DNA of 64,000 nucleotides from an uncultured Collinsella sp. (GCA_900547765.1 URIA01000002.1:2620-66619); one strand, 5' to 3'; counted from the first letter of the stretch, positions 13,018 to 53,362 are shown. Numbers and translations: made by a program. The notes: generated from the letters alone by a model not told the origin.

Positions 13018-13035
13018 GCAGGGGACACTCTTCGG

Positions 13036-14795: not shown

Positions 14796-14798
14796 CTA

Positions 14799-14835: not shown

Positions 14836-14940
14836 TTTACCTGCAAAAATATGAATATGAGACATTTGTCACCTGCCGTTTTGGTGCTCAAAGGCATATG
14901 AATGTGATGCTGAGCAGAGCAGAACGGAGGGGGTGCACCT

Positions 14941-15390
14941 ATGGCGTCTCGGGGTTGCGCGTCTAATAAAATTGCGGGCGCGCTTATCGCCGTGGTGGTC
15001 TTTGCCGCGGCGGTGACACTCATGCGAGTTTACGTTGCCGGCGAACATGGCGCTCAGGGAAAGACTGCCGCGCAAGTGTCGCTCAACGATTGCGCTGCCG
15101 TTCCGGTGGCGGTCAAGCTTATCGAGGACGGGGAGGCGCGGACGGCCTATGAGACCGACGATGCCGAACTGGTCGCATCGACTTTTGCCGCGCTCGATGG
15201 CTGCACCGTGGGGGATGCGGTGGATGAGCGGACGAGCGATGCCGGCCGAACGCTCGTCTTTGTCTATACGGATGGCTCGGAGCAATCGGTAGAACTTGAG
15301 GGCAAAAACATCGTGCTCGATAAGACGGCGTACCGACTTAACGGTGCCGATGAGTTATGGCGGCAGCTTGCCGCGATCAAAAACAGCTAA
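14941..15390 (+). CDS. Hypothetical membrane-anchored protein
   Basis: RBS GGAGGG; N-terminal hydrophobic anchor. Confidence 0.5.
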   Translation: MASRGCASNKIAGALIAVVVFAAAVTLMRVYVAGEHGAQGKTAAQVSLNDCAAVPVAVKLIEDGEARTAYETDDAELVASTFAALDGCTVGDAVDERTSDAGRTLVFVYTDGSEQSVELEGKNIVLDKTAYRLNGADELWRQLAAIKNS

Positions 15391-15410
15391 CGAAATAAGG
15401 GGTGTACGGG

Positions 15411-16973: not shown

Positions 16974-17046
16974 CGTGAGGCGGCTTATGTGTGAATCGAT
17001 GCCGGATGTGTTTCTCGGCATGGTGATAAAGAACGGGAAAGGAACA

Positions 17047-17805: not shown

Positions 17806-17839
17806 GTGCGATGCGCCCAATATCATAGCGAGGGATAAC

Positions 17840-18526
17840 ATGAAGAACGAGATGACGATGAGCCGTGCGACCTTTGTGGCAGGCGCAGGTACGGCGGCTT
17901 GTGCACTGGCTGGCTGCTCGGGCGGATTGGGCGGCGCGGACGGCGCCAAGGCGGCGAGCACGGCGGACGCCGCCTGCGTGGATGACAATGCCAACGTGAC
18001 GGTCTATGCCTCCATCAACCTGAGGGGTGCCGATCTGGTGCGCCTGCTCAAGCATCAAAACTATGAGTGGCAAGGCGAGAGCGTGGGCTATGGCGCCGTC
18101 GATGATGCGGGATTTTTCGCTTTTACCTTTTCTGAGGTCTCGGACGATGTGGACGAACTTGCAAATAGCGCGATACCGCTTTCGGAATCCGAATACGAGG
18201 AGCTTGAACCGGGTGGCGGAGACGATAGCGTGGCGATCTTGCTTTCGGTGGCAGGTTATACGACGGGCGATCGCGCGCTTGCCGGTGCAATCGGCGATGC
18301 GGCGATGGTGCAGGAGAAGTGCACGATTGACGATTCCACATATTGGCTGGTCAAGGCACTCGACGGCAGTCGCTATGTGATTTCGGCCTACGATACCGAA
18401 GACGATGGCGACAGCGCGCATGACATCTATATCTATAGTGAGTCTTTTATTCGCACCGGTTATCTGAGCGGCGGCGACAAAATCGATATCGACGAGCTCT
18501 GGAGTCGCCTGACCAACGCCTCGTAG
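17840..18526 (+). CDS. Lipoprotein (hypothetical), distant paralog of the preceding gene
   Basis: RBS GAGGGA; lipobox LAGCSGG. Confidence 0.6.
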   Translation: MKNEMTMSRATFVAGAGTAACALAGCSGGLGGADGAKAASTADAACVDDNANVTVYASINLRGADLVRLLKHQNYEWQGESVGYGAVDDAGFFAFTFSEVSDDVDELANSAIPLSESEYEELEPGGGDDSVAILLSVAGYTTGDRALAGAIGDAAMVQEKCTIDDSTYWLVKALDGSRYVISAYDTEDDGDSAHDIYIYSESFIRTGYLSGGDKIDIDELWSRLTNAS

Positions 18527-18534
18527 CGCACCAA

Positions 18535-18572
18535 AACCACCACAAAGGGGACAGGCACCTTTGTGGTGGTTT
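18535..18572. repeat. REP-like hairpin repeat, copy c
   Basis: Identical core to copy b, followed by TTTTT. Lies between the convergent lipoprotein and mgtA genes. Confidence 0.85.
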
Positions 18573-18608
18573 TTGCCCTTGGGCTGTCTACTGTGGCGGC
18601 TCACCGTG

Positions 18609-36971: not shown

Positions 36972-37092
36972 GTGGTTGCTTTCTCTCGCGTTTGTCCGCC
37001 AACTATTATGGCGTAGCGTCGCATCGATGCGTTCGCAGGCAAGAAAATGCAGGAAATGGGCGTTCTGCCCAGCCGTTTGGTGCAGTTGCCAG

Positions 37093-37215
37093 CTAAGTGA
37101 GTAGACTTTTTGCAATATCGCGAGCACATGGCTTTTGCGCAAGGGCTCTACCTGCGGTTTTAGTATTGGTTATGCGGGTTGTGCTTGGCTATTGCAAAAA
37201 AGTCTACTCACTTAG
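37093..37215. mobile_element. MITE-like element, copy 3
   Basis: CTAAGTGAGTAGACTTTTTGC … GCAAAAAAGTCTACTCACTTAG. Located between the helicase and trmB genes. Confidence 0.85.
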
Positions 37216-37280
37216 ATTTGAGGGTCGTTTGTTGGCGCCTATTCGCGCTTGTTTGCCGACGTCGCGACCATCAGAAGCCC

Positions 37281-38120
37281 CTAGGACTCTTGCGGTAGAC
37301 GCTTCTTGCCCTTGCGGGCACGGTTTCTAAAGTTCTCAACGGCCTCTTCCATGCCCAGGGGTACATAGGCGAGCTCATCGAGGTTTTCGGGCAGGTAGCA
37401 GGCAAGACTTTGCTCCTGCGCACGGCCCGCCGCGAGCTGTTCATCGCTGGGCCGTGCGCCGGGTGTGGCGCAAATGCCATAGACGACGGCACCCATCTCG
37501 CGCGTGCGGCATTCATATTCGGTCTCGGGATGCTCGGGATGGTCGCGGCGCACGTCGTCACTTACCCAAAGCGTGTCGTAGCCGGCTGCGGCAAACTGTC
37601 CTAGGGCGTAGTCGCGCAGTGGCTTGCTGTCGGTGCGCAGCGTGACGGTGGCGCCGGCTGCAAAGAGCGGGCGGTAGAGCATCAGATGGTCGACATGGAC
37701 GAGTCGTTTTTTGGCGTACTTGGCCTTGGGCTGCGGCGTGGGAAAGTTGATGGTGATGGCATCGAGCTCGCCTGCGGCAAACAGCTGCGGCAGCGATGCG
37801 GCACCTCGGGGCAGGACGAGTGCGTTGGACAGCTCTTGCTCGCAGATTTTCTGCGCGGCATAGGCGATGCAGATGGGTTCCTGGTCCATGCCGATAAAGA
37901 GGGCGTTTGGATCGTGGGCCGCGCGCTCAACAAGGTACGTTCCCTTGCCGCAGCCAAGATCCAGGTGAAGGTACTCGAAGGGCTTGCTGCCTGCGGGCGC
38001 GCAAGCCTCGCGCCAATCTCCGGTATAGATCTCGGGGTTCGTCTCGATTGCATCGGCGTAGCGCTCCAAGCGCTCCTCGAGCACAAAGTTCTTAGGCGTG
38101 CGAACGTGGACGGCTCCCAT
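37281..38120 (-). CDS. trmB: tRNA (guanine46-N7)-methyltransferase
   Basis: LDLGCGKG SAM motif and INFPTPQPK…KRL motif typical of TrmB. RBS AAGGAG. Confidence 0.85.
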   Translation of the reverse strand: MGAVHVRTPKNFVLEERLERYADAIETNPEIYTGDWREACAPAGSKPFEYLHLDLGCGKGTYLVERAAHDPNALFIGMDQEPICIAYAAQKICEQELSNALVLPRGAASLPQLFAAGELDAITINFPTPQPKAKYAKKRLVHVDHLMLYRPLFAAGATVTLRTDSKPLRDYALGQFAAAGYDTLWVSDDVRRDHPEHPETEYECRTREMGAVVYGICATPGARPSDEQLAAGRAQEQSLACYLPENLDELAYVPLGMEEAVENFRNRARKGKKRLPQES

Positions 38121-38237
38121 GAGGCTCCTTGGTCATAAATGCGAAACGCATGGTTACGCGTTTCGGCGCTGTGTTGGAAGGGGTGGGCATAGCTTGCCCG
38201 AAAGATGCGGTGCGGCTCGGCGGCGAGTCGCCGATGT

Positions 38238-39110
38238 CTACAGACGCTTGAGAATCACATAGCGGTTGAGCTCGCCGCTGCGACCGTCAGCATGGAAGCG
38301 CTCAAGCTCGCGCACGGGAACCTCGCCGCTCTTGTAGAACGTGCGGACACCGCGCACCAGGTCGGTGATCTGCTGATCGTCAAAGTGATGGCAATAGCGG
38401 TAGGCGTGGCGGTCGTTTTGCCAGCCAATGAGGTGATCGCCGGCTTCAAACTGCGCGGAATCGTAACCCTCAAACGGCGGGGTGAGTTCAGCGCGGGCTT
38501 CGGCTCGAACGGCCTTGCGCGCCATACGCTCATCGTTCATAAACTCCCAAAAGCTGATGGCGATGATGCCGCCTGGGCGCGTCTGGCGTACCAGGGCGTC
38601 GAGCACGCGTACGCGGTACTCGCACGACGGCACGTGGTGCATAAAGCCAAAGCAGACCGAGATGTCGGCGAGCGGGGCGTCGAAAAGCACGTCGGGTGTC
38701 TCGGCGGGGTTGAGCTTCATCAGGGCGTCGAGCACGTCGAGTTCCTGGAAGTGCAGGTTGGGAATTCGCAGGGCGTGGCCACGGGCATCGATCGCCAGGT
38801 CTTGGCACGAGTCGACACCATAGAACTCAAACGGGCAGCTGGCATCTGCCGAGGGGTTTGCGCCGTCGATGCCCTTGGCGGCAAGTGCGCCGCCGGCGGC
38901 AAAGTTCTCAAAGCGCATATTGCCGCAGGCAAGATCGAAGACGCGGACGGGATGCTCGATCGTGGCGACGTCGAGCTGCTCGAGCGCGATGTCCATGGTG
39001 CGCACCCAGCCGGGCCACGGTGCCTGGCGCGTATCGGAGAAGGAGGCGGAGTGCTCGCGATAGAACGTATTGTTGAGCTGAATGAGCGATGAGGCGAAAT
39101 CGCGGTTCAC
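38238..39110 (-). CDS. Class I SAM-dependent methyltransferase
   Basis: Motif I VFDLACGNMRF. Proposed GTG start at 39110 preceded by GGAGGGA; the track start at 39245 has no RBS. Confidence 0.65.
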   Translation of the reverse strand: MNRDFASSLIQLNNTFYREHSASFSDTRQAPWPGWVRTMDIALEQLDVATIEHPVRVFDLACGNMRFENFAAGGALAAKGIDGANPSADASCPFEFYGVDSCQDLAIDARGHALRIPNLHFQELDVLDALMKLNPAETPDVLFDAPLADISVCFGFMHHVPSCEYRVRVLDALVRQTRPGGIIAISFWEFMNDERMARKAVRAEARAELTPPFEGYDSAQFEAGDHLIGWQNDRHAYRYCHHFDDQQITDLVRGVRTFYKSGEVPVRELERFHADGRSGELNRYVILKRL

Positions 39111-39377
39111 GGCGCGGAACTCCCTCCGTTGGCGGTGCGGAATAAACAGTACGACCATACTACCGTTAACGCCGCAACGGGGACAACCGAGCTGCGGGTC
39201 ATTGCTTTGTTTGGACACATTTCCGCAGCTCATGTATGCCCGCAACCGCCGGTTGTCAAAAATCTCACTAGAATAGGTGGCATGCTTTTGGCGGTGGCAG
39301 ATAGATTTTTAACTGTGCAAGGCGCCTTAAGAACAAAAACGGTCCGGCGGCACGGCTGGCATCACATAGGAGGAACC

Positions 39378-40100
39378 ATGAATGTAGAAACTGCGCAGCG
39401 GCTCGCCGACCTTCGTCGCAGCAAGGGTTTTAGCCAAGAAGGGCTGGCGCGAAAGCTGGGGCTGTCGCGCCAGGCGGTCAGTAAATGGGAGCGTGCGGAG
39501 AGCTCGCCCGATACCGAGAACCTGATCTCGCTCGCCAAACTCTATGGCGTGAGTTTGGACGAGCTCCTCAATCCGAGTGACGAGATCGAGGACGATATCG
39601 AGTTTGAGAACGAGGACCGCGCCCGTCAGCGCGAGGCCGAGGCGGCAGAGCGCGCCCGTACCCATGAGGCGGCGGCACGTGCCACCGAGGCGGCAACGCA
39701 GGCGAGTGATGCCGCGGCCAAGGCGGCGCAAGCGGCAAGCTGGAGTGCGCAGGCAGCTAATGCGGCGACGGCTCAGGTGACGGGTGCCGGTGCGACCAGC
39801 GTGACTCCGGTGAAGGGTCCGTTTCAGTCGTTCCCGTATTGGGCTGTGTGCTGGCTGCTGTTCTTTTTGCTGATGTTCCTGTTTGGTGCCGGCCCCTTTG
39901 CCGCGCTGATCTTCTTTACGATCCCCATCTATCACTGGGTGGCGCGTGCGCTCGATGGCGATTGGGCACGCGGGGATATCCAGGTTGGTCCGGCGCCGGC
40001 GGTCGCTAGGACTAAGGGGGAGGACGTTTCCACTGCGGTTGACGCTGACATGGCTGCCGGGGCCACCGCTGAGCCGAGTGCCAAAGAAGGTGGTGAATGA
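39378..40100 (+). CDS. XRE-family HTH transcriptional regulator with C-terminal membrane segment
   Basis: Cro/C1 HTH (…SQEGLARKLGLSRQAVSKWERAES…); Ala-rich linker; two TM helices. RBS AGGAGG before ATG 39378. Confidence 0.75.
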   Translation: MNVETAQRLADLRRSKGFSQEGLARKLGLSRQAVSKWERAESSPDTENLISLAKLYGVSLDELLNPSDEIEDDIEFENEDRARQREAEAAERARTHEAAARATEAATQASDAAAKAAQAASWSAQAANAATAQVTGAGATSVTPVKGPFQSFPYWAVCWLLFFLLMFLFGAGPFAALIFFTIPIYHWVARALDGDWARGDIQVGPAPAVARTKGEDVSTAVDADMAAGATAEPSAKEGGE

Positions 40101-40996
40101 TGAAGCTCTCGCATGAGTCTAAGAGGCGCTTGGGCGTCGGCATCGGAGCGTTTGTGCTTATCATCGGACTTGTCTTCGGCACTTCGTGGACTTTGATTCA
40201 TTTTGATGGACCGTGGGATTTCGACGATGTTGTATCCGGCTTGTCTGGTATGGGCGATGCGTTTGACGAGGACGATTCCTTGAATAGCGGTAACTATTCC
40301 GCTCGGCCTCAACAGCTTTCGAAGGAAACGTTTGATGCCGACGCGTTCACATCCCTTGACTTGGATGTGACGTCGGGTGCGGTTGAGATCAAATGCGTTT
40401 CCGACGGGCCGGTACGTGTCATCGAGAGTGGCCGCGTCGCAAAAGGAGTAGCTGCTTACGATGCGGCAACCCAGAATCTGACCGAGGTTAAGGGTTCTAC
40501 GCTCAAGCTTCGCCAGTTCGATTGCGATGACGAGCGCGCCATTGACCGCACGGTAACCGTCGAACTGCCGCGCGAAGTTGCCGATAACATGGTGGGCATT
40601 ACAGCGAATGTAGGATCGGGTGACCTGACGGTCGCGGGCATTGCGTGTCATGACCTCAACCTGACTTTGGACTCGGGAGACGTCGAGTTTACGGGTACCG
40701 TGACCGATACCCTGAATGCCGAGGTCGGTTCGGGCGATGTGACGTTCGAGCTCTACCAGGCCCCCGCGAAGTCGATGGACGTGAGCGTGGGCTCGGGCGA
40801 TGTGGAGATGACGGTTCCGAACTCGACGGGCTTTAAGGCGAGCCTCACCTTGGGCAGCGGCGACTTCGAGAGCGATTTCCTTCCGCTTGGCTACGACGGC
40901 GAGACCGTTTTGAATCTTGAATTCGATAACGGCGATAAGTCTGCCACGTATCGTTTTGAGGTCGGTTCGGGCGACATGTCGTTTGATCCGGAGTGA
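40097..40996 (+). CDS. DUF4097-type repeat protein (putative adhesin / LiaG-like)
   Basis: N-terminal TM anchor and six GSGD(L/V/F/M)… beta-repeat units. ATGA overlap with the upstream regulator. Confidence 0.75.
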   Translation: MMKLSHESKRRLGVGIGAFVLIIGLVFGTSWTLIHFDGPWDFDDVVSGLSGMGDAFDEDDSLNSGNYSARPQQLSKETFDADAFTSLDLDVTSGAVEIKCVSDGPVRVIESGRVAKGVAAYDAATQNLTEVKGSTLKLRQFDCDDERAIDRTVTVELPREVADNMVGITANVGSGDLTVAGIACHDLNLTLDSGDVEFTGTVTDTLNAEVGSGDVTFELYQAPAKSMDVSVGSGDVEMTVPNSTGFKASLTLGSGDFESDFLPLGYDGETVLNLEFDNGDKSATYRFEVGSGDMSFDPE

Positions 40997-41043
40997 CATG
41001 AGGTTTTCGGAGATCGGTACATATAGGCATGCTGTTTGATGAA

Positions 41044-41085
41044 GGCGCCGAAGCCGAGATTGGCTTCGGCGCCTTTGCCTTTACA
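41044..41085 (+). terminator. Terminator hairpin after the DUF4097 gene
   Basis: GGCGCCGAAGCC-gagatt-GGCTTCGGCGCC followed by TTTGCCTTT. Confidence 0.5.
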
Positions 41086-41093
41086 ATGGGGGC

Positions 41094-43001
41094 ATGGAAC
41101 AGATTATCTTGAACATACTCGAGGCTCTGCGTCGCGGCGAGACCGTGGACGACAAAGCGCTCGTCAAATTGATACATGCCGAGGCGCGCCGCGAGGGTGC
41201 CGACAAACGCGATTTGGCCAAGCGCCGTCTGCTGCCGTTCTACCAGCGGGTTAAACGTGAGGAGCCGGCTCGGTGGGCTGCGTGGAATGTCGATTCCGAT
41301 CTGGAACGTCAACTGCTGCAGGTGCTGCGTATGAAGTCGCGCCGAACGGCCTCGGGCGTGGCGACCATTACCGTCATCACCAAGCCCTGGCCGTGCTCGG
41401 GCGATTGCCTGTTTTGCCCCAACGACCTGCGCATGCCCAAGAGCTATCTGCATGCTGAGCCGGCGTGTGCCCGTGCGGAGCAAAACTGCTTCGATCCGTA
41501 TCTGCAGGTGAGTGCCCGTTTGACGGCGCTTTCGCAAATGGGGCATGCGACCGATAAGATCGAGCTCATTGTGCTTGGCGGTACCTGGAGCGACTATCCG
41601 GAAGGCTATCAGACATGGTTTATGTCGGAGCTCTTCCGCGCGCTCAATGACGATGCCGTGGCCGGCGTGGCGGCCAACCCCATGTTGGCGCGTCCGGGTA
41701 TCAGCCGTGCCGAGGCGGGGCGCCTGCTCGACGATGCTCCTGCCAATGCGCTGCCGCCGGTGGTGGCGGAGCGACGCGAACGCTATCGCGCTGCCGGTAT
41801 TGCGACCGATGAGGTTGAGCTTGCGAGCGGCGTTGCCGACGAGCAGGGGCGTGTGGATGCTACCGTGGGTGGCTATAACCGCGCGGTGCGTCGTCTGTAC
41901 GGCCCCGGCACGCCGTGGGGCGAGGTCGCCGAGTGGCAGACGGCCACGATGGAGGAGCTTGAGCGTCAGCAGCGCATCAATGAGACGGCGAAGCATCGCG
42001 TGGTGGGGCTCGTTATCGAGACGCGCCCCGATGCTGTAACGCCGCAGGCCCTCACGCTTATCCGCCGCCTGGGCTGCACCAAGATCCAGATGGGTATCCA
42101 GAGTCTCGACCAGCACCTGCTCGATATCAACGAGCGTCGCATTTCGGTGGCGCAGATCGAGCGGGCGTTTTCGCTTGCGCGCCTGTTTGGCTTTAAGATC
42201 CACGCGCATTTTATGCTTAACTTGCTGGGCGCCACGCCCGAGGGGGACAAGCGCGACTACGAGTGCTTTATGACCGAGGGGGCCTTTATGCCCGACGAGG
42301 TCAAGGTCTACCCGTGTGCGCTCATCGAGGGCTCGCGTCTGGTGGGCTGCTATGAGCGCGGCGAATGGCGCCCCTATACCGAGGAAGAGCTGCTCGATGT
42401 GTTGGCCGACGACATCGTGGTGACGCCGGCGTTCTGCCGCATCAGTCGCATGATCCGCGACTTTAGCTCCGACGACATCATGGTGGGCAACAAGAAGCCC
42501 AACCTGCGTCAGCTCGTCGAGAACCGCCTGGCTGCTCGGGGTGACGGTGCGACGGTGCGTGAGATCCGCTATCGCGAGATTAGCACGGCGGGCGCCGACC
42601 TAGGCGAGTTGACCCTTGACGAGGGCGTGGCGTACGAGACGCCGGTGACGCACGAGCGCTTTTTGCAGTGGGTGACGCCGCAGGGCAAAATCGCGGGTTT
42701 TTTGCGCCTGTCGCTGCCCGATCGCGCGTTTGTTGCCGCGCATGCGGACGAGTTGCTGACGGCGCCGGACGAGGCGATGATTCGTGAGGTGCACGTGTAC
42801 GGCATGGCGGCGCGCATGGGAGATCAAGGCCAGGCGGCTCAGCATCATGGACTGGGGCGGTCGCTGGTGGAGCGTGCGTGCCAGATGGCGCGGGACGCGG
42901 GCTATGCGCGCATCAACGTGATCAGCGCGATCGGCACGCGTGAGTACTATCGTCATTTGGGTTTTTACGACCATGGACTCTATCTGCAAAAGGAGCTCTA
43001 G
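41094..43001 (+). CDS. Elp3-like radical SAM / GNAT acetyltransferase family protein
   Basis: Radical-SAM cysteine cluster region (…PCSGDCLFCPN…) and C-terminal GNAT domain (…HHGLGRSLVERACQMARDAGYARINVISAIGTREYYRHLGF…). Overall Elp3 architecture. Confidence 0.75.
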   Translation: MEQIILNILEALRRGETVDDKALVKLIHAEARREGADKRDLAKRRLLPFYQRVKREEPARWAAWNVDSDLERQLLQVLRMKSRRTASGVATITVITKPWPCSGDCLFCPNDLRMPKSYLHAEPACARAEQNCFDPYLQVSARLTALSQMGHATDKIELIVLGGTWSDYPEGYQTWFMSELFRALNDDAVAGVAANPMLARPGISRAEAGRLLDDAPANALPPVVAERRERYRAAGIATDEVELASGVADEQGRVDATVGGYNRAVRRLYGPGTPWGEVAEWQTATMEELERQQRINETAKHRVVGLVIETRPDAVTPQALTLIRRLGCTKIQMGIQSLDQHLLDINERRISVAQIERAFSLARLFGFKIHAHFMLNLLGATPEGDKRDYECFMTEGAFMPDEVKVYPCALIEGSRLVGCYERGEWRPYTEEELLDVLADDIVVTPAFCRISRMIRDFSSDDIMVGNKKPNLRQLVENRLAARGDGATVREIRYREISTAGADLGELTLDEGVAYETPVTHERFLQWVTPQGKIAGFLRLSLPDRAFVAAHADELLTAPDEAMIREVHVYGMAARMGDQGQAAQHHGLGRSLVERACQMARDAGYARINVISAIGTREYYRHLGFYDHGLYLQKEL

Positions 43002-43880
43002 ATGAACAAGCCGAGTGTTTCTGCTGGTGTCGTTGCCGGCGTTGCCCTGGGAGCCGCGGCACTTGGTGCGGCCGCCGTCGCTGTTCGCGCTGCCTGTCTG
43101 CAGGTCGCGAGGACCCGCAATGGGCTGGCGCGTGTAAAGCGCGTGCACGATGAGGGCGGCGACGAAGTCCGCGTATTGGTTCAAGGCGGCGTCTACCAAA
43201 GCGCGAGTTACGTTGGCGAGCGCTGGGCGGAGCCCGTCTTTGCGTACTATCGCGCGTTTGACGACGTGTTTGAGGCCGAGGATGCGATGCGCGACGCTTA
43301 TGGTCACGGTATCAGCCGTATGCTTATGCTAGGTGGCGGCGGGTTTGCCTATCCCAAATATGCGCTGGTGTCGCACGAGGGCTTGCGTATGGACGTTATC
43401 GAGTATGACGGAGAGATAACGCGCTTGGCGCGCCGTTGGTTCTACCTGGACGAGCTGGAGCGCGCGGTGGGCGACCGCCTGCGGGTGATTACCGCCGAGG
43501 CTCGCTCGTATCTGGGTGTGACGAGCGTGGGCCATCGTCGCTACGACGTGGTCGTGAGCGATTGCTTTGGCGGTGCCGAGCCCGTTCGCGAGCTGGCGAC
43601 GGTTGAGGCGCTGCGCCTGGTGCGAGGCAGCCTGAACCCCGGGGGTATCTACGTGGCCAATATTGTGAGCGCAAACGAGGGGAGCGATGTGACGTTCCTT
43701 CGCGACTGCGCTGCCACGGCACTCGAGGTATTCGTCCACGCCTGGGTGGTCCCATGTGGCGATGCGAAGTTCGGCGGCGAGGAAAACTACCTGCTCATCG
43801 CCAGCGACGGCGACTACGCCTTTGCCGAAGCCGTGCCCTTCGACACCGACTTCCTCGGCACCGTTCTTCACGACAAGTAA
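43002..43880 (+). CDS. Spermidine-synthase-like class I methyltransferase-fold protein
   Basis: MLMLGGGGFAYP… and …DVVVSDCFGG… resemble spermine/spermidine synthase motifs. Translationally abutted to the Elp3-like gene. Confidence 0.6.
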   Translation: MNKPSVSAGVVAGVALGAAALGAAAVAVRAACLQVARTRNGLARVKRVHDEGGDEVRVLVQGGVYQSASYVGERWAEPVFAYYRAFDDVFEAEDAMRDAYGHGISRMLMLGGGGFAYPKYALVSHEGLRMDVIEYDGEITRLARRWFYLDELERAVGDRLRVITAEARSYLGVTSVGHRRYDVVVSDCFGGAEPVRELATVEALRLVRGSLNPGGIYVANIVSANEGSDVTFLRDCAATALEVFVHAWVVPCGDAKFGGEENYLLIASDGDYAFAEAVPFDTDFLGTVLHDK

Positions 43881-43907: not shown

Positions 43908-46352
43908 TTAGGCGTGGTCGCGCCAGCTGCGGACACGCTGCTTCATACCCTCGATGTCGAGCACGCCTTCGGCAAAGCCCTTGCGCACGAGCTCTTCGGG
44001 AACAAACTCGTCGTAGCGGTCAAAGTAAGGCACCTCGCCAGGATAGACGAGCTCGATGGGATCGAAGTCCTTCTCGGCCTCGGTGGCGAGCACCTCAAAG
44101 AACGTCTCCTCGTCGGCCTTCATCTTAAACTGCATAAAGTACGGGCGTGACGGATCGAGCCCGCGAAGGCCCAGCTCAGCGGCGCATTTGATTTTAAGCA
44201 TGCGCTCGAGTGCTAGGAAGGCGTAGCTGCCCAACCAGGGGAAGAGCACCCAGGTATCGCCGCCCAGGTTGATGAGCGGTTTAGTTCCCGCGCCCGAAAT
44301 CTCGGCGGTATGACGAGCCTGCGCCAAACGAGCCCGTGCGTTACCCATAAGGTACGGATATGTTGCGTGCTCAGTGAGCGCTTGGCGCATGCGCTCGAGC
44401 ACATGCGTGTTAATGTCTCCAGGGCAGTCGCCAAAGTAGGCCGGCACACGGCCCTTGACCTGCGTGGCAAAGACAGTATGGCGCTTCCAGTCCACTTCCT
44501 CGACAATCCAGCAGTGTCCGGCGATGGCGATGCGCTCACCGGGCGGGGGCGGATTAACGATCGTGCCCAGCTCGGCCGATTCGCTGCGAACGGTAAACTC
44601 CTCGTTTTCCTGGAACACGGCGTAGAACTTAAAGTTGTTGATGATGCGCTCGCCCGCGAGGCCCACGATGAGCCCACCGCCCTCGGTGACCTGGATATGG
44701 TCGATCTTAATGAGGTGATGTAGCAGCACACGGTAATCGTCTGCCGAGACACGGTGGAAATAGCTGAGCGTGAGCACGCGTTGGGCAAGTTCGGCCGGCG
44801 TGAGCTCGCCGGTGCTGGCGAGGGTCGACATAGTCTGGTGATAGAGCAGGCTGTAGGGGAGACGATCGAGCTCAGGCGGCTCGACCCACTTTTCCTCGCG
44901 ATAGAGTTGTACGAGCGCGATACCCTGCAGGAGCTTCCAGGGAATGGTTTCGGGCATCATCGTGCGCGGCTCGGGTTCTTCCTCACGCATGACAAACCAC
45001 ATCTCGGGCGGAAGGTCGCGACGGCCTGTGCGCCCCATGCGCTGCAAAAAGGAGCTGACGGTAAACGGCGCATCGATCTGAAATGCACGCTCCAGGCGGC
45101 CGATATCGATACCGAGCTCCAACGTAGAGGTGGTGACGGTTGTCTGCGTCTGCTCCTCGTCGCGCATGAGCTCCTCGGCCGTCTCGCGTAGCGATGCCGA
45201 AAGATTGCCGTGATGGATGAGAAAGCGGTCGGGCTCGTGCCGGCTCTCGCAGTAGCTGCGCAGCATGGAGCACACGGCCTCTGCCTCCTCGCGCGAGTTG
45301 GCAAAGACCAGGCACTTGCGGCCGCGGGTGTGTTCGAAGATATAGCCCATGCCGGGGTCGGCGTTGTCTGGTGCTGTGTCGGTGGGGCTGAGAAGCGCCT
45401 GCTCGGTCGCTCGCGGGATGTCGACTTCGCCCTCGGGGGCCGAGGAAGTTTGGCGGTCCTTGGGAGTGGCCTTGCCCCGTGCCCGCTCACGACGTTGACG
45501 GCGCTCCTCTTGTGTGAGCTGTCCGCTGTGACGCATGTCTTGGGCGCCGGCGGGCAGTGCCGCGGATGCCGCCGCCTCGATGCGCTCGCACGCAAGCACT
45601 TCGGCCTCTTGAGGACCTGTGCCCATGAATCCCCGCTGCTGTGCCTGAGGACCCGAGTTGTAGAAGTGCTCCATGGAGATGCGCCACACGCGACGCGGCT
45701 CCTCAAAACGGGGGATAACGCAGTCGCGTCCCGTTCCCTGTGAGAGAAAAGCGCCCGTGCGCTCGGGGTCGCCGATGGTAGCGGAAAGGCCAATGCGACG
45801 GGGCTGCACGCCTGCCATGCGCGACAGGCGCTCAATAAGGCAGAGCGTCTGCCCGCCTCGATCGCCGCGCATAAGCGAATGGACCTCGTCAATGACCACA
45901 TAGCGCAGGTCGCAGAACATGCGCGGGATCGCCATATGCTTATGGATCAGGAGTGCCTCGAGCGACTCGGGCGTAATCTGAAGGATGCCGCTCGGTTTTT
46001 TGATGAGCTTAGCCTTGTGCGATTGCGAGACGTCGCCATGCCAGTGCCAGACGGGGATGTTGGCTTCTCCGCACAGGTCATTGAGACGGACGAACTGATC
46101 ATTGATGAGTGCCTTGAGGGGGCCGATGTAGAGGGCGCCAACGCTTGCGGGCGGGTTCTCCCAAAACTCGGTCAGGATGGGAAAGAAGGCTGCCTCGGTT
46201 TTGCCGGAAGCTGTGGATGCCGTTAGGAGCACATTGTCTTGTGTGTTAAAGATGGCATCTGCCGCCGCAACCTGAATGGAGCGCAGACTCTCCCAATCGT
46301 GGGAGTAGATGAAGTCTTGGATAAACGGAGCATATCTGTCAAAGGCGTTCAC
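43908..46352 (-). CDS. Lhr-like DEAD/DEAH-box helicase (Shango SngC-like)
   Basis: Motif I ASTASGKTEAAF, motif II DEVH, SAT, motif VI QRMGRTGRR. Proposed GTG start at 46352 preceded by GAGAGGAGG-cccc; the track start at 46418 is TTG with no RBS. Confidence 0.8.
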   Translation of the reverse strand: MNAFDRYAPFIQDFIYSHDWESLRSIQVAAADAIFNTQDNVLLTASTASGKTEAAFFPILTEFWENPPASVGALYIGPLKALINDQFVRLNDLCGEANIPVWHWHGDVSQSHKAKLIKKPSGILQITPESLEALLIHKHMAIPRMFCDLRYVVIDEVHSLMRGDRGGQTLCLIERLSRMAGVQPRRIGLSATIGDPERTGAFLSQGTGRDCVIPRFEEPRRVWRISMEHFYNSGPQAQQRGFMGTGPQEAEVLACERIEAAASAALPAGAQDMRHSGQLTQEERRQRRERARGKATPKDRQTSSAPEGEVDIPRATEQALLSPTDTAPDNADPGMGYIFEHTRGRKCLVFANSREEAEAVCSMLRSYCESRHEPDRFLIHHGNLSASLRETAEELMRDEEQTQTTVTTSTLELGIDIGRLERAFQIDAPFTVSSFLQRMGRTGRRDLPPEMWFVMREEEPEPRTMMPETIPWKLLQGIALVQLYREEKWVEPPELDRLPYSLLYHQTMSTLASTGELTPAELAQRVLTLSYFHRVSADDYRVLLHHLIKIDHIQVTEGGGLIVGLAGERIINNFKFYAVFQENEEFTVRSESAELGTIVNPPPPGERIAIAGHCWIVEEVDWKRHTVFATQVKGRVPAYFGDCPGDINTHVLERMRQALTEHATYPYLMGNARARLAQARHTAEISGAGTKPLINLGGDTWVLFPWLGSYAFLALERMLKIKCAAELGLRGLDPSRPYFMQFKMKADEETFFEVLATEAEKDFDPIELVYPGEVPYFDRYDEFVPEELVRKGFAEGVLDIEGMKQRVRSWRDHA

Positions 46353-46435
46353 GGGGCCTCCTCTCAAAAACGAATCTCTCAACGCGGCTGGCAACGGCTT
46401 GCTGCATTGCTGCTTCAACGTTTGCCCAGATAAAA

Positions 46436-46468
46436 CCTGCCAAAATAAACCTGTCCCGTTTTGGCAGG
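46436..46468 (-). terminator. Intra-operon terminator-like hairpin between the ATPase and helicase genes
   Basis: Minus strand: CCTGCCAAAA-cgggacaggtttat-TTTTGGCAGG then TTTTAT. Abuts the ATPase stop codon. Loop contains GGGACAGG as in the REP loop. Confidence 0.55.
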
Positions 46469-47773
46469 TTAGATGGTGAATTCGGCGAAGTTGCGGTCAC
46501 CGTCTGCAGCGCCGGTGTCGCCTGTTGCGGCTGCCGGCGCCAGCGCGTCGCCGCCGACGCTTTGCAGCAGCTCCGCCACATTTGCATCGGGGTTCTGACA
46601 CAGGATATCGAGCAGCTCGATAAAGTCACGGATGACCTCACGCGGCGTTAAGTGCGTATCGGCTCCCACGCGGCCAAACTCAATCTTGAGAAAGCCCACC
46701 AAGTCGTTCTCGGTAAGCGTGGGTGTCCAGCCAAAGTAGCCGGCATGGATCTGCATGAGTTTTTCGATGAGCACCAGCAGTTCCTCATAGGTGAGTGGCT
46801 GCAGGCGGATGATGGGCGCGAGCATGTCCTTAAGGTCCTCGCGCGCAAAGCGGCCCTGAGCGAGTCGGCTGCGCAGGGCTTCGTAGGAGAACATGCCGCG
46901 GCGGCGGTCTTCGATGGAGGTTGGCGTGCCGCCCATGATTATGCCCAGGTACTGCGCTTTGCCCTGGAGCGTGTCGTTGTACATGGTCAAGATCTTCTCG
47001 TAGTTGTATTGGCGCGTGATCGCGTTGGGAATCTTGTACAGATTCACGAGCTCGTCGATGAGCACCAGCATGCCCTTGTAGCCGCTGCAGACCAAAAAGC
47101 GCGCAATGAGCTTAACGTAGTCGTACCAGTCGTCATCGCTGATGATGGTCGAGGAGCCCAGCTCGGCGCGTGCCTCACTCTTGGTGCGGTACTCGCCGCG
47201 AATCCATTTGGTCACGCGGCTCATGGCTTCTTCGTCGCCCTCGGATACTGCCGCGCGGTAGCGGCGGAGCATGCGGGCGAAGTCGAAGCCGTGGACCATT
47301 TCCTCGAGCGGGGCCAGTTGGGCATTGACGGCAGACTCATCGGCATCGGCACACGAGGCGACCCAGCGATCCAGGATAAGGTTGAGCGCACCGCCCTCGG
47401 GGCGCGTTTTAGTCGATATGTTGCGGATGAGCTCACGGTAGGTGGCAAGGCCCTGTCCCTGGCCGCCCTGCAGGCGGCGCTCAGGGGATAGGTCGGCATC
47501 GGCCACGACGAATCCCTCGCCCATGGCGTGCGTGCGGATGGTCTGGAGCAAAAAGCTCTTGCCGGCTCCGTAGCGACCGACCAGAAAGCGGAAGCTTGCG
47601 CCGCCGCCGGCGATGAGACTCAGGTCGGTGAGCAGGGCGCGGATCTCGACCTCGCGTCCTACAGTGATATAGGGAAGGCCGATGCGCGGGACCACGCCGC
47701 CCTTGAGCGAGTTGAGAATGACGGCAGCGACGCGCTTGGGCACGCGGGGTGCTGCGGATGCGTTATCACTCAT
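46469..47773 (-). CDS. P-loop ATPase, DUF2791-like (BrxD-like; Shango SngB-like)
   Basis: Walker A GRYGAGKS, Walker B region VLIDE; ~430 aa. The start overlaps the upstream gene end. Confidence 0.75.
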   Translation of the reverse strand: MSDNASAAPRVPKRVAAVILNSLKGGVVPRIGLPYITVGREVEIRALLTDLSLIAGGGASFRFLVGRYGAGKSFLLQTIRTHAMGEGFVVADADLSPERRLQGGQGQGLATYRELIRNISTKTRPEGGALNLILDRWVASCADADESAVNAQLAPLEEMVHGFDFARMLRRYRAAVSEGDEEAMSRVTKWIRGEYRTKSEARAELGSSTIISDDDWYDYVKLIARFLVCSGYKGMLVLIDELVNLYKIPNAITRQYNYEKILTMYNDTLQGKAQYLGIIMGGTPTSIEDRRRGMFSYEALRSRLAQGRFAREDLKDMLAPIIRLQPLTYEELLVLIEKLMQIHAGYFGWTPTLTENDLVGFLKIEFGRVGADTHLTPREVIRDFIELLDILCQNPDANVAELLQSVGGDALAPAAATGDTGAADGDRNFAEFTI

Positions 47774-49526
47774 GGTCTAGGTATCCTCTCACGTCTGCTT
47801 CGTAGTCCTCGATAATGTGCGGTCCTGCTGCGCCAAATTCAATTACGGTGTCACCCACCAGGTCAAAGAGCGCCTCGTTGATGGTATCGACGAGCATGTC
47901 CTCGCTCTGGCCCGACCTCTCCACTGCCGATGCCGTCTGTGCCACGTTCTGCTCGAGCAGTGCGTGAAGGAAGGCATCTGCGGCGGGCGCGAGTTCGGTT
48001 GCGGTGCCAGCGGGTGCAGTCGATACGACCGCTGGCGTCGGTGCGAGGAGCGGTGCCACGACGCCAAACTGTTCGGTGGAAATGGTTGGCTCGTCGGCTT
48101 CGTTGCGCTCCGTGGGCGTCGCGATCGGCTCGGTCATCACGTCGGCCGCGGGCTTGGCTTCCGGCTGCTCGGAGCCTGCCTCATCGACCTCTGCGAGTAT
48201 ATCGTCCTCGCGCTCTTCGTCGATTAAAAGTGCTTCGCGCGTTTGCGCAGCGGCGCTCCGAATGTGCCCCAGCTGAGTCAGGTCGATATCGATCTTGACG
48301 GGCTGGTGCGCGGCGTCCCACGAAAGCCATGCCACGATCTCGTCATCGATGATCTTGGCCAGATATTTGGGGACCTTCTCCTCCTTCAGGGGATGGGTGG
48401 GGTCTAGGGCCAGGCGCAGGCGTTGGTCGCAGGCGCGCATCATCTCACCGAGCTTGCTGCTTTTTTGTCTGCTGCCGTGGATGCGCATGCATTCCCAAAA
48501 GCCATTTTGGCAGCGGTAGATGTGAATGGGGTCCAGGCGATATTCGCAGTCCTCGTGGCGCTCGGGCGCAAAGAACACGGCCGAGGCAAACATGGTGTAG
48601 GGCATGGCCGTCTCCTCCCCAAACAAGCTCGCTACGATGCCGGTCTTTCGGTGCGTGTCATAGTAGCGCGCCATACGGACATACACGGCGCATGCCACGT
48701 GGCGCAGGTCGCGATGGTGGGAACGGTCGAGCCGTGAGTTATTCAGGTTGTACGTGGAGAGGGCGTTTATAGCGGTCATGAGTCGCTCCTCGCCTGCCTC
48801 GTCGGGCGGAAGGGGGAGCGTGGGCTCGGAGGTTTTGCGACGCTTGGGGACTTGGGCCGACGGCGTCGGTGTAGGTGCAAGGTCTCGAGCCGCGCGGCGC
48901 AGCTCGATGAGGGCGTTGTCGAACATGACGGTTTTAGAGTCGCGAAGCAGCTTGGGGTCGAGTCCGTGGAACACGGCGTAGTCCTGCAGCCACACGCGTG
49001 CAAACCGATCGATGCCGGGCTCGAAGGCGCGGTAGGCATCCCAAAAGGCCTTGATTTTGTTAAAACCATCGAGTGGGTCATCTACGCCAATGCCACAGAT
49101 CAGCTCATAGAGATACAGGAAGGCAAAGGACGTAGACGTTTCCTCGACGGTTCCGCGGCGCACTTGTGCACGCCAGGTAAAATAGCCACGCAACTGCCGA
49201 TCGCTCATGGCGTTATAGGTGGGAAAGTACGACTTGAACGTACCGTTGTAGGGGCAGTCGTCCTCAAAGTCGGCCATCAGCAGGCCTTGGCGGTAGAAAA
49301 GCTCGGCTTCCGAAAGCCAGCGACCCGCGCCGCCTTTGGGGTCATCCTGCCAGCGCGATATCTCGCGCATCTTGCGGTATTGGTCGGGAAGGAAGTTCTG
49401 CATCTGACGACCGGTTTTGAGAATTGGCTCGTCAGCATAGACTTCGTTTGAGAAGCGAGCAGACTGATGGGTCCGGGCCTCGGCCATAATGCGCTCGATG
49501 AGCATCTTGATGTCCTGGTCGGCCAC
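47766..49526 (-). CDS. TerB-N / TerB-C domain protein (Shango SngA-like)
   Basis: Conserved …QLRGYFTWR… block typical of TerB-N-containing proteins; acidic, low-complexity C-terminal half. GTG start with GAGAGGAGG-agcg. Confidence 0.6.
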   Translation of the reverse strand: MADQDIKMLIERIMAEARTHQSARFSNEVYADEPILKTGRQMQNFLPDQYRKMREISRWQDDPKGGAGRWLSEAELFYRQGLLMADFEDDCPYNGTFKSYFPTYNAMSDRQLRGYFTWRAQVRRGTVEETSTSFAFLYLYELICGIGVDDPLDGFNKIKAFWDAYRAFEPGIDRFARVWLQDYAVFHGLDPKLLRDSKTVMFDNALIELRRAARDLAPTPTPSAQVPKRRKTSEPTLPLPPDEAGEERLMTAINALSTYNLNNSRLDRSHHRDLRHVACAVYVRMARYYDTHRKTGIVASLFGEETAMPYTMFASAVFFAPERHEDCEYRLDPIHIYRCQNGFWECMRIHGSRQKSSKLGEMMRACDQRLRLALDPTHPLKEEKVPKYLAKIIDDEIVAWLSWDAAHQPVKIDIDLTQLGHIRSAAAQTREALLIDEEREDDILAEVDEAGSEQPEAKPAADVMTEPIATPTERNEADEPTISTEQFGVVAPLLAPTPAVVSTAPAGTATELAPAADAFLHALLEQNVAQTASAVERSGQSEDMLVDTINEALFDLVGDTVIEFGAAGPHIIEDYEADVRGYLDHE

Positions 49527-49613
49527 CGCTCCTCCTCTCGAACGCAGCTACGGTGACCTCATATCATAGCACAGCATCAAACAGGTGTTCGAGATACCGC
49601 TGCGTTGATAGAT

Positions 49614-50448: not shown

Positions 50449-51174
50449 TCAGGTGGTTGTCGGGACATAGGGATAGTAGTCAAAGCGCAGTGTCATAAGC
50501 CGCTGTGGGGATTCAATAGCCGCGGCGATGATATTGGCATCGCGGGCACGATCAAACCCTTCGAGTTCGATCTGATACGAGACGTCTTGCATAATGTCCA
50601 GACGTCGCCAGGCTAGGAGTGTGTCACCATCGAATTCCAAGGTCTTGCCTCCGTCTGGAGCAACGGCGTATAGACGCAGCTTGGCGGTGGTTGCGGGGTC
50701 GACAACCGTGACCTTTTTAATTTCGTTTCGAGTATTCTTGGCGCCCAACAAGGTGAGCAGTGTTGGGGCCACGACCTCGCCCGATGGCAAAAAGACGACT
50801 TCGATGGATTCAGGAAATGCGATGATGGCCGACTTGCGGACGGGCTGATTGGCGGCGGCAACTTCGATGTTCGCAGCGTCGATGACCTCTGTGTGGTCGA
50901 GCGCGGCAAGCACGCAGCAGTTACCTTCATCGATCTCTTGAGGATCAGCAAGCCCCAGACTGTCTGCGAGCTCGGGATCGTTTGGATCGTTAGCGGGCTC
51001 ATTCGGTGCTTCGAAAGAAGCTGGGACGCTGTTTGTCGGCGACGGCGTGTCGCCCGCACCTGCTTCTTTGTCCGCGTTCTCTTCTTGTATGGTTGCGTTG
51101 ATGGGTTCGTCGTTTGAGGGGAGCGTCTTGGCGTCAAGCGCGGAGGGGATAATTCCGATGGCTCCTGATCCGTT
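50449..51174 (-). pseudogene. In-frame continuation of the upstream secreted-protein gene after a TGA stop (possible nonsense mutation or readthrough)
   Basis: No stop codon and no ATG between the TGA at 51175-51177 and the GTG-initiated ORF 50449..50913. The 87-codon intervening stretch is a Pro/Asp/Glu-rich linker. Confidence 0.4.
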
Positions 51175-51879
51175 TCACTCCATTTCGAGAAGCGCCGGGT
51201 CGGCAAGAATGCGTTGCCTGCTTTGCGCGTGGGCATCGATTTCAATAGGGCCTGCCTCTATCCCTCGTGTAAGGCTGAGTGATCCGGCTGGCTTCTCGAA
51301 ATGAGCGTCTGTGTCTTTGGTGCTGACGGCGTAGAACAGCAGGGACGCTTCTCCCGCCGCGATGGCATCGGTGTCGGCTTTGGTCAACCGCAACGATGCC
51401 GTGAATGAGAGGGTGGGCTGCGTGTCGTCTGCATTCGCGGCGGCGCAGCCCAGACATATACCGCCTCCTTTCTCGAAAAACGCACCGTCGAAGGCGACCT
51501 TCGCTCCGTTCGCCGAGTCATCGATCGAAGCGATGTCGATGTGCAGCTCTAAATTGCATGGATCGCCATCTGCGTCGAGCACAACCGAGCGCCACGTGCA
51601 GACGGCGTACCCCGCCTGGGAGCCGTTTGCCTTGTTCGAACGATTGATATCCACGACTATCGAACCGTCCGTATTACGACGAAGGCATCCCGAGGTTGAG
51701 ATTGCAGCCTGTGCGATCGAAAAACGCTTGCACGCAATGGCGCTCGACGGATTTGATGCGGAGCTTAGGGCTGCTGGTAAGGAGTCTGCCATGACGGGAG
51801 TCGCCCAAGCGGCGACAGGCGTTCCGGTTGCGAGCGCGCCGCAGAGTGCGACGACGGGCAAAAGGTTCTTCGATGCCAT
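51175..51879 (-). CDS. Secreted hypothetical protein (N-terminal part of an interrupted larger gene?)
   Basis: Signal peptide MASKNLLPVVALCGALATGTPVAAWA; RBS AAGGAG; ends at a TGA that is in-frame with the downstream ORF. Confidence 0.55.
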   Translation of the reverse strand: MASKNLLPVVALCGALATGTPVAAWATPVMADSLPAALSSASNPSSAIACKRFSIAQAAISTSGCLRRNTDGSIVVDINRSNKANGSQAGYAVCTWRSVVLDADGDPCNLELHIDIASIDDSANGAKVAFDGAFFEKGGGICLGCAAANADDTQPTLSFTASLRLTKADTDAIAAGEASLLFYAVSTKDTDAHFEKPAGSLSLTRGIEAGPIEIDAHAQSRQRILADPALLEME

Positions 51880-51897
51880 GGGGTCTCCTTAGCTAAT

Positions 51898-52762
51898 TTA
51901 GTGCGGCCTGTCCGTGTTTTGTTTCTGGCTGCGTTTGATGTGCAGGCCGAGGCTGGCGGTTCCCGCGCCTGCTGCTGTGGCGCCTGCTGCCAAGAGCCAT
52001 CGTCCATCGCCTGTCTGCGCCAATGGTTCCTCGCGGTTGCCGCGGTCGAGCCCCGAGAGGTCGACCGTCACTTGCGTGGCGGCCTGCGCCTGTTCTTGCT
52101 GGGCAAAGGCCATGGCTGGGCCAAACGCTAGGATGCTGACGGCGGCGGCCAGGGCGACGGCCTTATGCCGTGTGCGCACCGGGCTCGACCGTCCAGGTGA
52201 TCGTTGCAACCTGATCGCCTTCGCCGGTTACGCGGAAGATGTCGCGCGTGACGCGGGCGACGTTTCCGCTTGTCTTGAGCTTAATTTTGTCCTTGCCGCC
52301 GGCAATGCCCTGGTAGCTCATGTCGAAGGCTGCGTTCTTGGAAAGATCGAGGCCCGTCCCCTGCATTGCGGCGCTGGCGTTCTGGAGTGCGCCGTCGGGG
52401 CCGACCTTAAAGTCGATGGAGTTCTGCGCGGTTCCGGCCTTGGCGTCGGCAGCAATGGTCCAGGTGTTCATGGCGTCGATCTTCATGTTGGTGACATGGA
52501 TGCCGTAGGCCGAATGATTGTCGATGGTGGTCGCGTCTTCTGAGGGGCCCTGAAGCGTGCCGTCGGCCTTGGCGACGAAGGGAATAACCGTCGGAACTTT
52601 GAACTCAACGTTGTCGATCTCGGTCCTGACCATTACTTTCGTGGTTCCAACGCGCCCGGCCGCCATAGCTGGCGTCGGGGCAGCGCCCATTGCGAGCGCG
52701 AGCGCGAGCCCTGCGCCCACGACGAGCGCTCTGGCTCCGTTCATGTTCCTGGTGATGTCCAT
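51898..52762 (-). pseudogene. LPXTG-type cell-wall-anchored surface protein, apparently frameshifted
   Basis: 5' ORF 52163..52762 has a signal peptide. 3' ORF 51898..52209 (TTG 'start') ends with LAQTG + hydrophobic stretch + KRSQK tail, a sortase sorting signal. The two overlap by 47 nt in different frames. Confidence 0.45.
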
Positions 52763-52852
52763 GGTCGTTCCTTTCTATTCGCCGCGGGCCGTCCCCGCGA
52801 TGATTGGACGAATGCTGGTGAATTGCGTGCGGTGCCGCGTCGGCCGGAAAAG

Positions 52853-53362
52853 CTAGTTCTCGGCTTGCTCAACCCGCACCTTGACACGTGTCGGATTGCC
52901 GTGGCTGTCGAGGGTCTTGGCATCGAGTGCCTGGATCTCGATGTACGCCTCGCCTTCTTTGATGTCGCCGGCGGGGCACGTCTCGATTGTCTTGCCGGTC
53001 TCGACCACACCGGATTCGTACATGGTCTCGTCGTTTTGGATGACGCGGAATCGCTGGGGAAATTTATTGTCTTGGACGTTTTGCACGTTGACGCGCAGCT
53101 TGCCGTCCTCCTGCAGCTGAGCGACCGGCGCGACCGAAATCGTCATCATGTTGTCGCGGACGATAGCGTCGAGCTCATCTTGGATTTCCTGACGCGTTTT
53201 GCCCTCGGCCGTCGTAACCGAAGCGCCCGCCTCGGGTACGGGCTGCGACTGCCAAGCGTATAGTCCTACGGCGACAAGGGCGCAGACGATGGCCAAACAG
53301 GCAACGATGAGCTTCTTGCGACGACCCAGGCCTACAAAGTGGGGTGGCCTCTTCGCGCTCAT
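52853..53362 (-). CDS. Hypothetical membrane-anchored protein
   Basis: N-terminal TM helix; ATG overlaps the upstream stop (ATGA). Confidence 0.55.
   Translation of the reverse strand: MSAKRPPHFVGLGRRKKLIVACLAIVCALVAVGLYAWQSQPVPEAGASVTTAEGKTRQEIQDELDAIVRDNMMTISVAPVAQLQEDGKLRVNVQNVQDNKFPQRFRVIQNDETMYESGVVETGKTIETCPAGDIKEGEAYIEIQALDAKTLDSHGNPTRVKVRVEQAEN

Follow-up and report, generated by a model that had tools for sequence, protein, structure and literature searches.

A Shango-family SngABC gene trio at a conserved chromosomal locus of Collinsella, with a proposed role in nucleic-acid surveillance

The subject of this work is a set of three genes, sngA, sngB and sngC, found in a 64,000-nt stretch of DNA (the window) from an uncultured Collinsella sp. 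(GCA_900547765.1 URIA01000002.1:2620-66619), which belongs to the Collinsella aerofaciens complex. All three are on the minus strand and co-directional, with A-B-C being the order of transcription. The first, sngA (47766..49526), begins with GTG and specifies a protein of 586 amino acids (aa) carrying the sequence LRGYFTWR. The second, sngB (46469..47773), has an ATG start and a product of 434 aa with a Walker A motif (GRYGAGKS) and a Walker-B-like sequence (LVLIDEL), and the third, sngC (43908..46352), starts at GTG and encodes 814 aa with the helicase motifs ASTASGKT, DEVH and QRMGRTGRR. The first two genes share 8 nt (47766-47773), and a gap of 116 nt (46353-46468) lies between sngB and sngC. 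An initial annotation, prepared from the sequence alone, had reported these open reading frames (ORFs) and the overlap of the first two, and every motif it quoted is present, including GYFTWR. The GC content of the trio (0.60-0.62) is like that of its surroundings. No tRNA genes were found in the window, no integrase genes flank the trio, and a repeat search around it gave no att-like, terminal or bounding repeats.

Both GTG starts are preceded, 4 nt upstream, by a strong Shine-Dalgarno sequence (GGAGG), and the 9-mer GAGAGGAGG occurs in two copies in the window, each four nucleotides before a GTG: as GAGAGGAGG-AGCG-GTG at sngA (49527..49539, minus strand) and as GAGAGGAGG-CCCC-GTG at sngC (46353..46365, minus strand). 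By chance 0.39 copies would be expected, and 8 of 100 shuffles reach two. The start context of sngB is GAGAGGA-N10-ATG, so that the shared GAGAGGAGG-N4-GTG context attributed earlier to all three genes is exact for sngA and sngC and does not extend to sngB. A GGAG-rich Shine-Dalgarno sequence and the GTG codon are kept across the complex. The suggestion that translation is deliberately held at a low level is not supported. GTG starts are common in high-GC Actinobacteria. Mechanical extension of the sngC ORF would place its start at a TTG (46418); this was rejected in favour of the GTG at 46352, since the Shine-Dalgarno sequence is found there, the PADLOC alignment begins there, and the gene calls of relatives also give 814 aa.

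The sngB-sngC spacer opens with a terminator-like hairpin (46428..46470, minus strand), whose 12-bp stem, ACCUGCCAAAAC...UUUUGGCAGGU, runs into UUUUAU. The stem itself is clear, although folding all 123 nt as RNA gives no significant result (z = -1.15). A simple promoter/terminator scan gave nothing above chance, and its terminator part missed the hairpin. The 116-nt spacer with its hairpin is present in 72 of 79 loci, and deeper lineages have spacers of 12-36 nt without a hairpin. No compensatory changes were seen in the stem among the Collinsella loci. Across 72 Collinsella loci the spacer is conserved above synonymous sites. As judged from its sequence, the hairpin may partly terminate or attenuate transcription and so uncouple sngC expression from that of sngAB; it is put forward only as a lead.

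SngB is a full-length P-loop ATPase of the BrxC_BrxD family (PF10923, formerly DUF2791; Pfam 4.4e-149), with Walker A at G66-RYGAGKS (K72) and Walker B as LVLIDE. It scores far better against the PADLOC SngB model (1.5e-169, 563 bits) than against that of BrxD (1.3e-38, 131 bits), a 4.3-fold difference in bits, and against the NCBIfam model BREX_BrxD (NF033438) it reaches 132.6 bits, where the cutoff is 350. No relative of SngB with a solved structure was found, and no membrane segment is predicted in either SngB or SngC. Homologues of SngB are carried by 687 plasmids, 541 of which are conjugative, and the proteobacterial plasmid copies are about 42-45% identical to it. A separate homologue search returned no distant relatives, the matches being dominated by Collinsella sequences at 97-99% identity.

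SngC is an Lhr-like superfamily 2 (SF2) helicase, with motif I as GKT (K51), motif II as DEVH (D155/E156) and motif VI as QRMGRTGRR, and is matched by the Pfam families DEAD (3.6e-26) and Helicase_C (5.3e-18). A charged insertion of ~90 aa lies between its RecA lobes. The closest entries in the PDB are Lhr (5v9x, 3.4e-25, and 7lhl) and MrfA/YprA (6znp), bearing out the Lhr-like description in the initial annotation. The match is mainly over the first RecA lobe, and the C-terminal half is matched by the SngC and BrxHI models only. As with SngB, the Shango model is clearly preferred, PADLOC giving 8.1e-275 (912 bits) for SngC and 6.3e-123 (410 bits) for BrxHI, a 2.2-fold difference in bits, and SngC falls far short of the cutoffs of Lhr-type models (TIGR04121, 192 bits with a cutoff of 850; PRK13767, 164 and 849; PRK09751, 86 and 1496). 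In published work SngC has been placed in a defence-specific SF2 clade together with BrxHI, DruE and DpdJ (PMC12278908).

SngA carries the domains TerB_N (PF13208; 3.3e-32, aa 65-198) and TerB_C (PF15615; 2.9e-16, aa 407-580), and is matched by the PADLOC SngA model over aa 29-581 (6.3e-77, 258 bits; model positions 53-525 of 528), with no BREX model of PADLOC matching it. It shows no match to the TerB domain PF05099, even at E<=10, and has no transmembrane or amphipathic hydrophobic segment (maximum KD19 1.34). There are low-complexity linkers at aa 201-260 and 441-540, and the acidic tail noted previously is real, with 34 D/E and 5 K/R within aa 437-586. The family is large (about 2,500 clusters at 50% identity). 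Among relatives in the complex the identity of SngA is lower (87-95%), the variation being concentrated in the two linkers and not in the folded parts. Diversifying selection on SngA was considered and rejected, as the surplus change sits in the low-complexity linkers and the overall dN/dS is 0.13.

On these domains and model scores, the trio is a complete Shango-family (SngABC) system, each protein being of full length and the ATPase and helicase motifs being intact. The assignment is secure, and a BREX identity is excluded, because of the PADLOC and NCBIfam scores and because the window yielded no genes of the PglX/PglZ type. The Shango identity proposed in the initial annotation has therefore held up under searches with hidden Markov models, and the resemblance to BrxD and BrxHI that it mentioned is real, only much weaker. 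The system itself is already known, and PADLOC or DefenseFinder should label the locus Shango. It was described as an operon of TerB-like, ATPase and helicase genes in a core defence hotspot of P. aeruginosa and in islands of E. coli, and the protection it gives against phages is modest, 10-100-fold, as seen with the systems of P. aeruginosa PA14 and E. coli only (PMC10250203; Millman et al. preprint). The same order of TerB_N protein, ATPase and helicase also occurs on a plasmid of Clostridium estertheticum, where it lies beside a relaxase gene and an IS110 element, and on a plasmid of Aeromonas.

The distribution of the trio was examined in loci fetched by way of a flanking radical-SAM/GNAT gene (rSAM, 41094..43001), with one genome per species. 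The sample consisted of the best 80 of ~570 genomes matched by the flank-gene scan, all of them Collinsella of the C. aerofaciens complex with 96-98% identity. In 64 loci the complete trio is in the same place, in 10 more the contig breaks off part-way through the trio, 5 loci are of insufficient length for a call, and one (L054) ends within an insertion of ~2 kb resembling a gene for a major facilitator superfamily (MFS) transporter. An empty site, meaning the junction without the trio, was not seen among the 80 loci, and every informative relative carries the trio. Divergence from the window, calculated by the Nei-Gojobori method, gave synonymous values (dS) of 0.34 for SngC, 0.28 for SngB and 0.38 for SngA, which equal those of the flanking proteins rSAM (0.30) and p292 (0.32), the latter encoded by the adjacent gene at 43002..43880 (plus strand). 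Divergence of the trio has thus kept pace with that of its neighbours, under strong purifying selection (dN/dS of 0.043 for SngC, 0.054 for SngB and 0.133 for SngA; 0.057 for rSAM and 0.072 for p292).

More distant loci were found via remote orthologues of SngA and p292, and their proteins were compared with those of the window. Percent identities, in the order rSAM, TrmB (a TrmB-like methyltransferase of the flank), p292, SngC, SngB and SngA, are 85, 80, 80, 89, 90 and 66 in L087; 83, 75, 75, 87, 88 and 67 in L088; 80, 65, 59, 83, 82 and 53 in L086; 72, 74, 57, 75, 80 and 50 in L089; 63, 50, 63, 77, 74 and 54 in L090; and 66, 57, 48, 76, 79 and 42 in L094. In three others SngB and SngA were not seen, and the first four values are 68, 59, 55 and 79 (L092), 63, 54, 54 and 78 (L093) and 63, 56, 46 and 73 (L091). 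In every deeper lineage, sngC lies near a conserved block that includes genes for a DUF3516 helicase, TrmB, rSAM and p292, and the identity of SngC exceeds that of rSAM, TrmB and p292, by 2-15 points. Across these lineages identity follows that of the flanking rSAM closely, with a Pearson r of 0.94 for SngC and a Spearman rho of 1.0 for SngB. Scored with the SngC model, all the deep-lineage helicases reach 888-908 bits.

The position of sngAB in the deeper lineages is less constant, these genes being adjacent to sngC, 3 kb apart from it, or not seen nearby. In L094, a metagenome-assembled genome of Collinsella sp. (10936-19485), genes for an ATP-binding cassette (ABC) transporter and an Fe-hydrogenase lie between sngC and sngB-sngA. 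In L093 an AbiD (Abi_2) gene (14552-15688) is directly upstream of sngC and overlaps its start, in the position that sngAB occupies in the window, and in L096 sngC is followed by a resolvase gene and exopolysaccharide genes. Either the helicase is able to work alone or its SngAB partners are located elsewhere. On the side of the trio opposite p292 the gene content also varies: DUF554 and a surface-protein operon may be present, FAD-oxidase/electron-transfer flavoprotein genes may follow directly, or there may be a helix-turn-helix (HTH) gene with an ABC transporter, or MFS and aconitase genes. On this comparative evidence, the trio is an old, vertically inherited resident of the core chromosome in Collinsella, and several neighbouring genes are more recent arrivals.

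Among the flanking genes named in the initial annotation, DUF554 is confirmed (6e-66), and the spermidine-synthase-like assignment of p292 (292 aa, with an N-terminal hydrophobic segment, KD19 2.29) is borne out weakly, as the window copy matches Spermine_synth (PF01564) at E=0.008 and 16 bits, under the cutoff. Orthologues of p292 do carry PF01564, and one is named 'fused MFS/spermidine synthase' at NCBI. The picture of a fixed housekeeping flank on the sngA side does not apply, since in deeper lineages it is DUF554 and the genes further out that vary. PADLOC searches of ten neighbouring genes gave only generic matches to HTH and SF2-helicase domains and a weak mad2 match to p292 (6.6e-06, methyltransferase-fold).

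Several other features of the region were observed. The conserved block (34290..43880) comprises genes for the DUF3516 helicase, the TrmB-like methyltransferase, an unknown protein of 295 aa, the ELP3-like radical-SAM/GNAT protein and the spermidine-synthase-like membrane protein; it is kept in every lineage examined, and its constant neighbour is sngC. An HTH and DUF4097 gene pair (39129..40996) within the block is found in some lineages only, the DUF4097 gene at 70-98% identity. The MFS-transporter-like insertion of ~2 kb between the spermidine-synthase-like gene and sngC occurs in L013 (12782-14825), L054, L066 and L044, and in L013 it is followed by an intact trio; other lineages have a PGA_cap gene or a haloacid dehalogenase (HAD) hydrolase gene at this junction. 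Further out, on the sngA side, is an operon of small signal-peptide proteins (50449..53362, minus strand; 169, 199, about 93 and 476 aa) that gave no Pfam or PADLOC matches. It falls into allelic classes of 59-72% or 91-100% identity, compared with 96-98% for neighbouring genes, is absent from L084, L086, L089 and L090, and is probably a variable surface/adhesin locus. The gene for its 476-aa secreted protein (50449..51879, minus strand) carries a nonsense change, W235* (TGG to TAG, stop at 51175-51177), which splits it into ORFs of 234 and 154 aa; L001, otherwise identical, lacks the stop and L002 has it.

It is proposed that this complete and vertically inherited Shango-family system forms a nucleic-acid surveillance complex that gives the lineage immunity and possibly helps to maintain its genome, a reading that is given a probability of roughly 60%. 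Confidence in the mechanism itself is moderate at best. The trio would act in the cytoplasm as an ATP-driven complex, with SngC as an Lhr-like DNA translocase/helicase motor engaging DNA that is foreign or aberrant, for instance the replication intermediates of phages. The polarity of Lhr is 3'-to-5'. SngB, as a BrxD-like P-loop ATPase, could be a loader or switch, and SngA a sensor or adaptor, with disordered linkers connecting its TerB_N and TerB_C modules. The acidic C-terminal part of SngA is more likely to bind protein partners, or to mimic DNA and so hold them inactive, than to bind DNA. Because no nuclease, toxin or membrane domain was recognised in SngA, SngB or SngC, interference would be expected to work without cell suicide, either through helicase action that disturbs the DNA transactions of the phage or through the recruitment of host factors. 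Being fixed in the core genome, the system would provide a constitutive, lineage-wide innate immunity, and may contribute to maintenance of the host genome as well. Evidence favouring defence comes from the family as a whole, in its mobility on plasmids elsewhere and its demonstrated anti-phage activity, and from the AbiD neighbour.

A number of points weigh against this proposal. The mechanistic roles are all read from domain content. For SngA, the putative adaptor or DNA mimic, an AlphaFold2 model built on an alignment of 20 sequences (13 clusters at 92% identity) was poor (predicted local distance difference test score, 57.5; predicted template modelling score, 0.37), a Foldseek search of it against the PDB gave no match at E<=1e-3, and a profile made from 101 diverse representatives of SngA also found nothing in the PDB. 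Only aa 110-180 and 511-580 were modelled with moderate confidence, the latter as three helices and a hairpin in a winged-helix-like topology. Fixation in the core genome, together with a SngC conservation (73-89%) above that of rSAM (63-85%) and TrmB (50-80%), is atypical for a defence system and is at least equally compatible with a housekeeping function. Finally, sngAB were not found within 3-8 kb of the locus beyond sngC in L091, L092, L093 and L096/L097.

The strongest alternative builds on these same points. It holds that in Coriobacteriaceae SngC, with SngAB as accessories, is a core enzyme of DNA or RNA repair or processing like Lhr or MrfA, and that the anti-phage label obtained in Proteobacteria does not describe its main role here. 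This is possible, and is given about half the weight of the surveillance proposal or somewhat less. All informative genomes carry the trio, at a single fixed locus and outside any defence island (as seen from PADLOC on the ten neighbours), the dS of the trio equals that of the flanks with a dN/dS of 0.04-0.05, SngC is above rSAM, TrmB and p292 in conservation in every deeper lineage, sngC occurs without adjacent sngAB in L091, L092, L093 and L096, L094 has a split trio, and the nearest solved helicases, Lhr and MrfA, are repair enzymes. Against this, SngC proteins score 888-912 bits on the Shango model, compared with 92 for Lhr chains and 192 for the ligase-associated Lhr-type NCBIfam model (cutoff 850). 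Homologous trios elsewhere are plasmid-borne, mostly on conjugative plasmids (of 687 in all), Shango systems are anti-phage by experiment (PMC10250203), L093 has an AbiD gene coupled to sngC, and fixation is also compatible with defence. A related and still more tentative idea is that the 'Shango' genes of Collinsella and of its sampled relatives constitute an ancestral core module for genome maintenance, as could be argued from the constraint on SngC above that on neighbouring tRNA-modification genes, its persistence without adjacent SngAB, and the pairing with AbiD. Evolutionary behaviour thus favours maintenance and family-level evidence favours defence, and the two roles are not mutually exclusive.

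The other explanations fare much worse than either of these. A Ter-type system for metal or tellurite stress, or for membrane surveillance, would have SngA as a membrane-associated TerB sensor, and the literature does include speculation that membrane surveillance is the task of the TerB-like proteins in Shango and Bunzi (Millman et al. preprint). It is an improbable account of the present locus, where SngA has TerB_N and TerB_C but not PF05099 and lacks any transmembrane or amphipathic segment, its partners are a DNA helicase and an ATPase of a DNA-directed system, and domains of the terC, terD and telA type were not matched among the ORFs scanned. That a BrxD-BrxHI pair has survived here as the remnant of a type 2 BREX (Pgl) system is less probable again. 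The secondary PADLOC matches to BrxD (1.3e-38) and BrxHI (6.3e-123) and the Pfam family name BrxC_BrxD would fit it, but the bit scores from the Shango models are 4.3 times (SngB) and 2.2 times (SngC) as high, SngB is well under the NCBIfam BrxD cutoff, and the ATPase gene has a TerB_N/TerB_C gene as its translationally coupled partner; moreover, no PglX, PglZ or PglW domains were found in the sizeable ORFs of the window or in the related loci inspected, and no traces of pglX or pglZ pseudogenes were seen. Least credible of all is a recently acquired, self-contained mobile cassette, variably present between housekeeping genes, since the mobility of Shango in other phyla, on plasmids and beside relaxase and IS110 genes in Clostridium estertheticum, is not matched here by any empty site in 80 related genomes (which already refutes it for the sampled clade), by a synonymous divergence or GC content distinct from the surroundings, by flanking repeats, integrase or tRNA genes, or by any loss of the rSAM/p292 synteny, which persists down to about 46-63% identity in the flanking proteins.

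The initial annotation had taken the trio for a compact, self-contained insertion, had proposed comparing close relatives to see whether its presence varies, and had itself named conservation of the locus throughout the genus, with housekeeping-like behaviour, as an outcome that would tell against it. That outcome is what was observed. The genus-wide conservation refutes the insertion claim, gives no support to variable presence, and leaves the family assignment standing.

Core status is not wholly new for Shango. According to the HRGM2 gut-genome preprint, most defence systems are accessory and one exception is Shango, found in core genomes of Actinobacteriota (10.1101/2024.12.11.627901), so that the core status of Shango in gut Actinobacteriota was already recorded at survey level. 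What is added here is modest: the depth of the synteny, the conservation above that of neighbouring genes, the split and solitary-helicase variants, and the pairing with AbiD. In a very abundant genus of the human gut, Shango is fixed, syntenic and constrained like the core genes that surround it, which is a caution for defence-system surveys that presume an accessory, island-borne distribution. A lineage in which these are core genes would allow the roles in defence and in genome maintenance to be separated genetically, and natural variants are on offer in the form of the intact trio, the split trio, the solitary helicase and the helicase with AbiD. If the ancestral-module idea were true, one machine would have two faces, a mobile anti-phage Shango in Proteobacteria and a housekeeping-like helicase module here, and Collinsella would offer a tractable case of a domesticated defence system, or of a housekeeping origin for one.

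Among known systems, the ter-cluster TerB, Bunzi and Dionysus share with the Collinsella trio the 'TerB' naming and a proposed link of Ter domains to phage defence, but SngA is without PF05099, transmembrane helices or a pore-forming or membrane partner. The repair helicases Lhr and MrfA (YprA) have the same SF2 RecA core, and sngC resembles them in being a conserved chromosomal gene in this clade; unlike Lhr-type helicases, however, SngC is far under the cutoffs of the full-length curated equivalog models. Closer are the BrxD and BrxHI proteins of type 2 BREX (Pgl), an ATPase (PF10923) and a helicase clade homologous to SngB and SngC, in a system whose PglX methyltransferase, PglZ phosphatase and PglW kinase were not found here and are replaced by a TerB_N/TerB_C partner; SngB is also below the NCBIfam BrxD cutoff, and the BREX models score well under those of Shango. 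The best likeness is to Shango itself (Millman et al. 2022, Johnson et al. 2023), with which the trio shares the three protein families, their order and an operon-like organisation. The Collinsella version differs in its 116-nt sngB-sngC spacer with a terminator-like hairpin, in the charged insertion of ~90 aa in SngC, and in having sister lineages where the trio is split or sngC stands alone. It also departs from the patchy, accessory distribution that is typical of such systems, though no formal requirement, and occupies a fixed, syntenic core site instead of a variable hotspot such as cDHS1 of P. aeruginosa.

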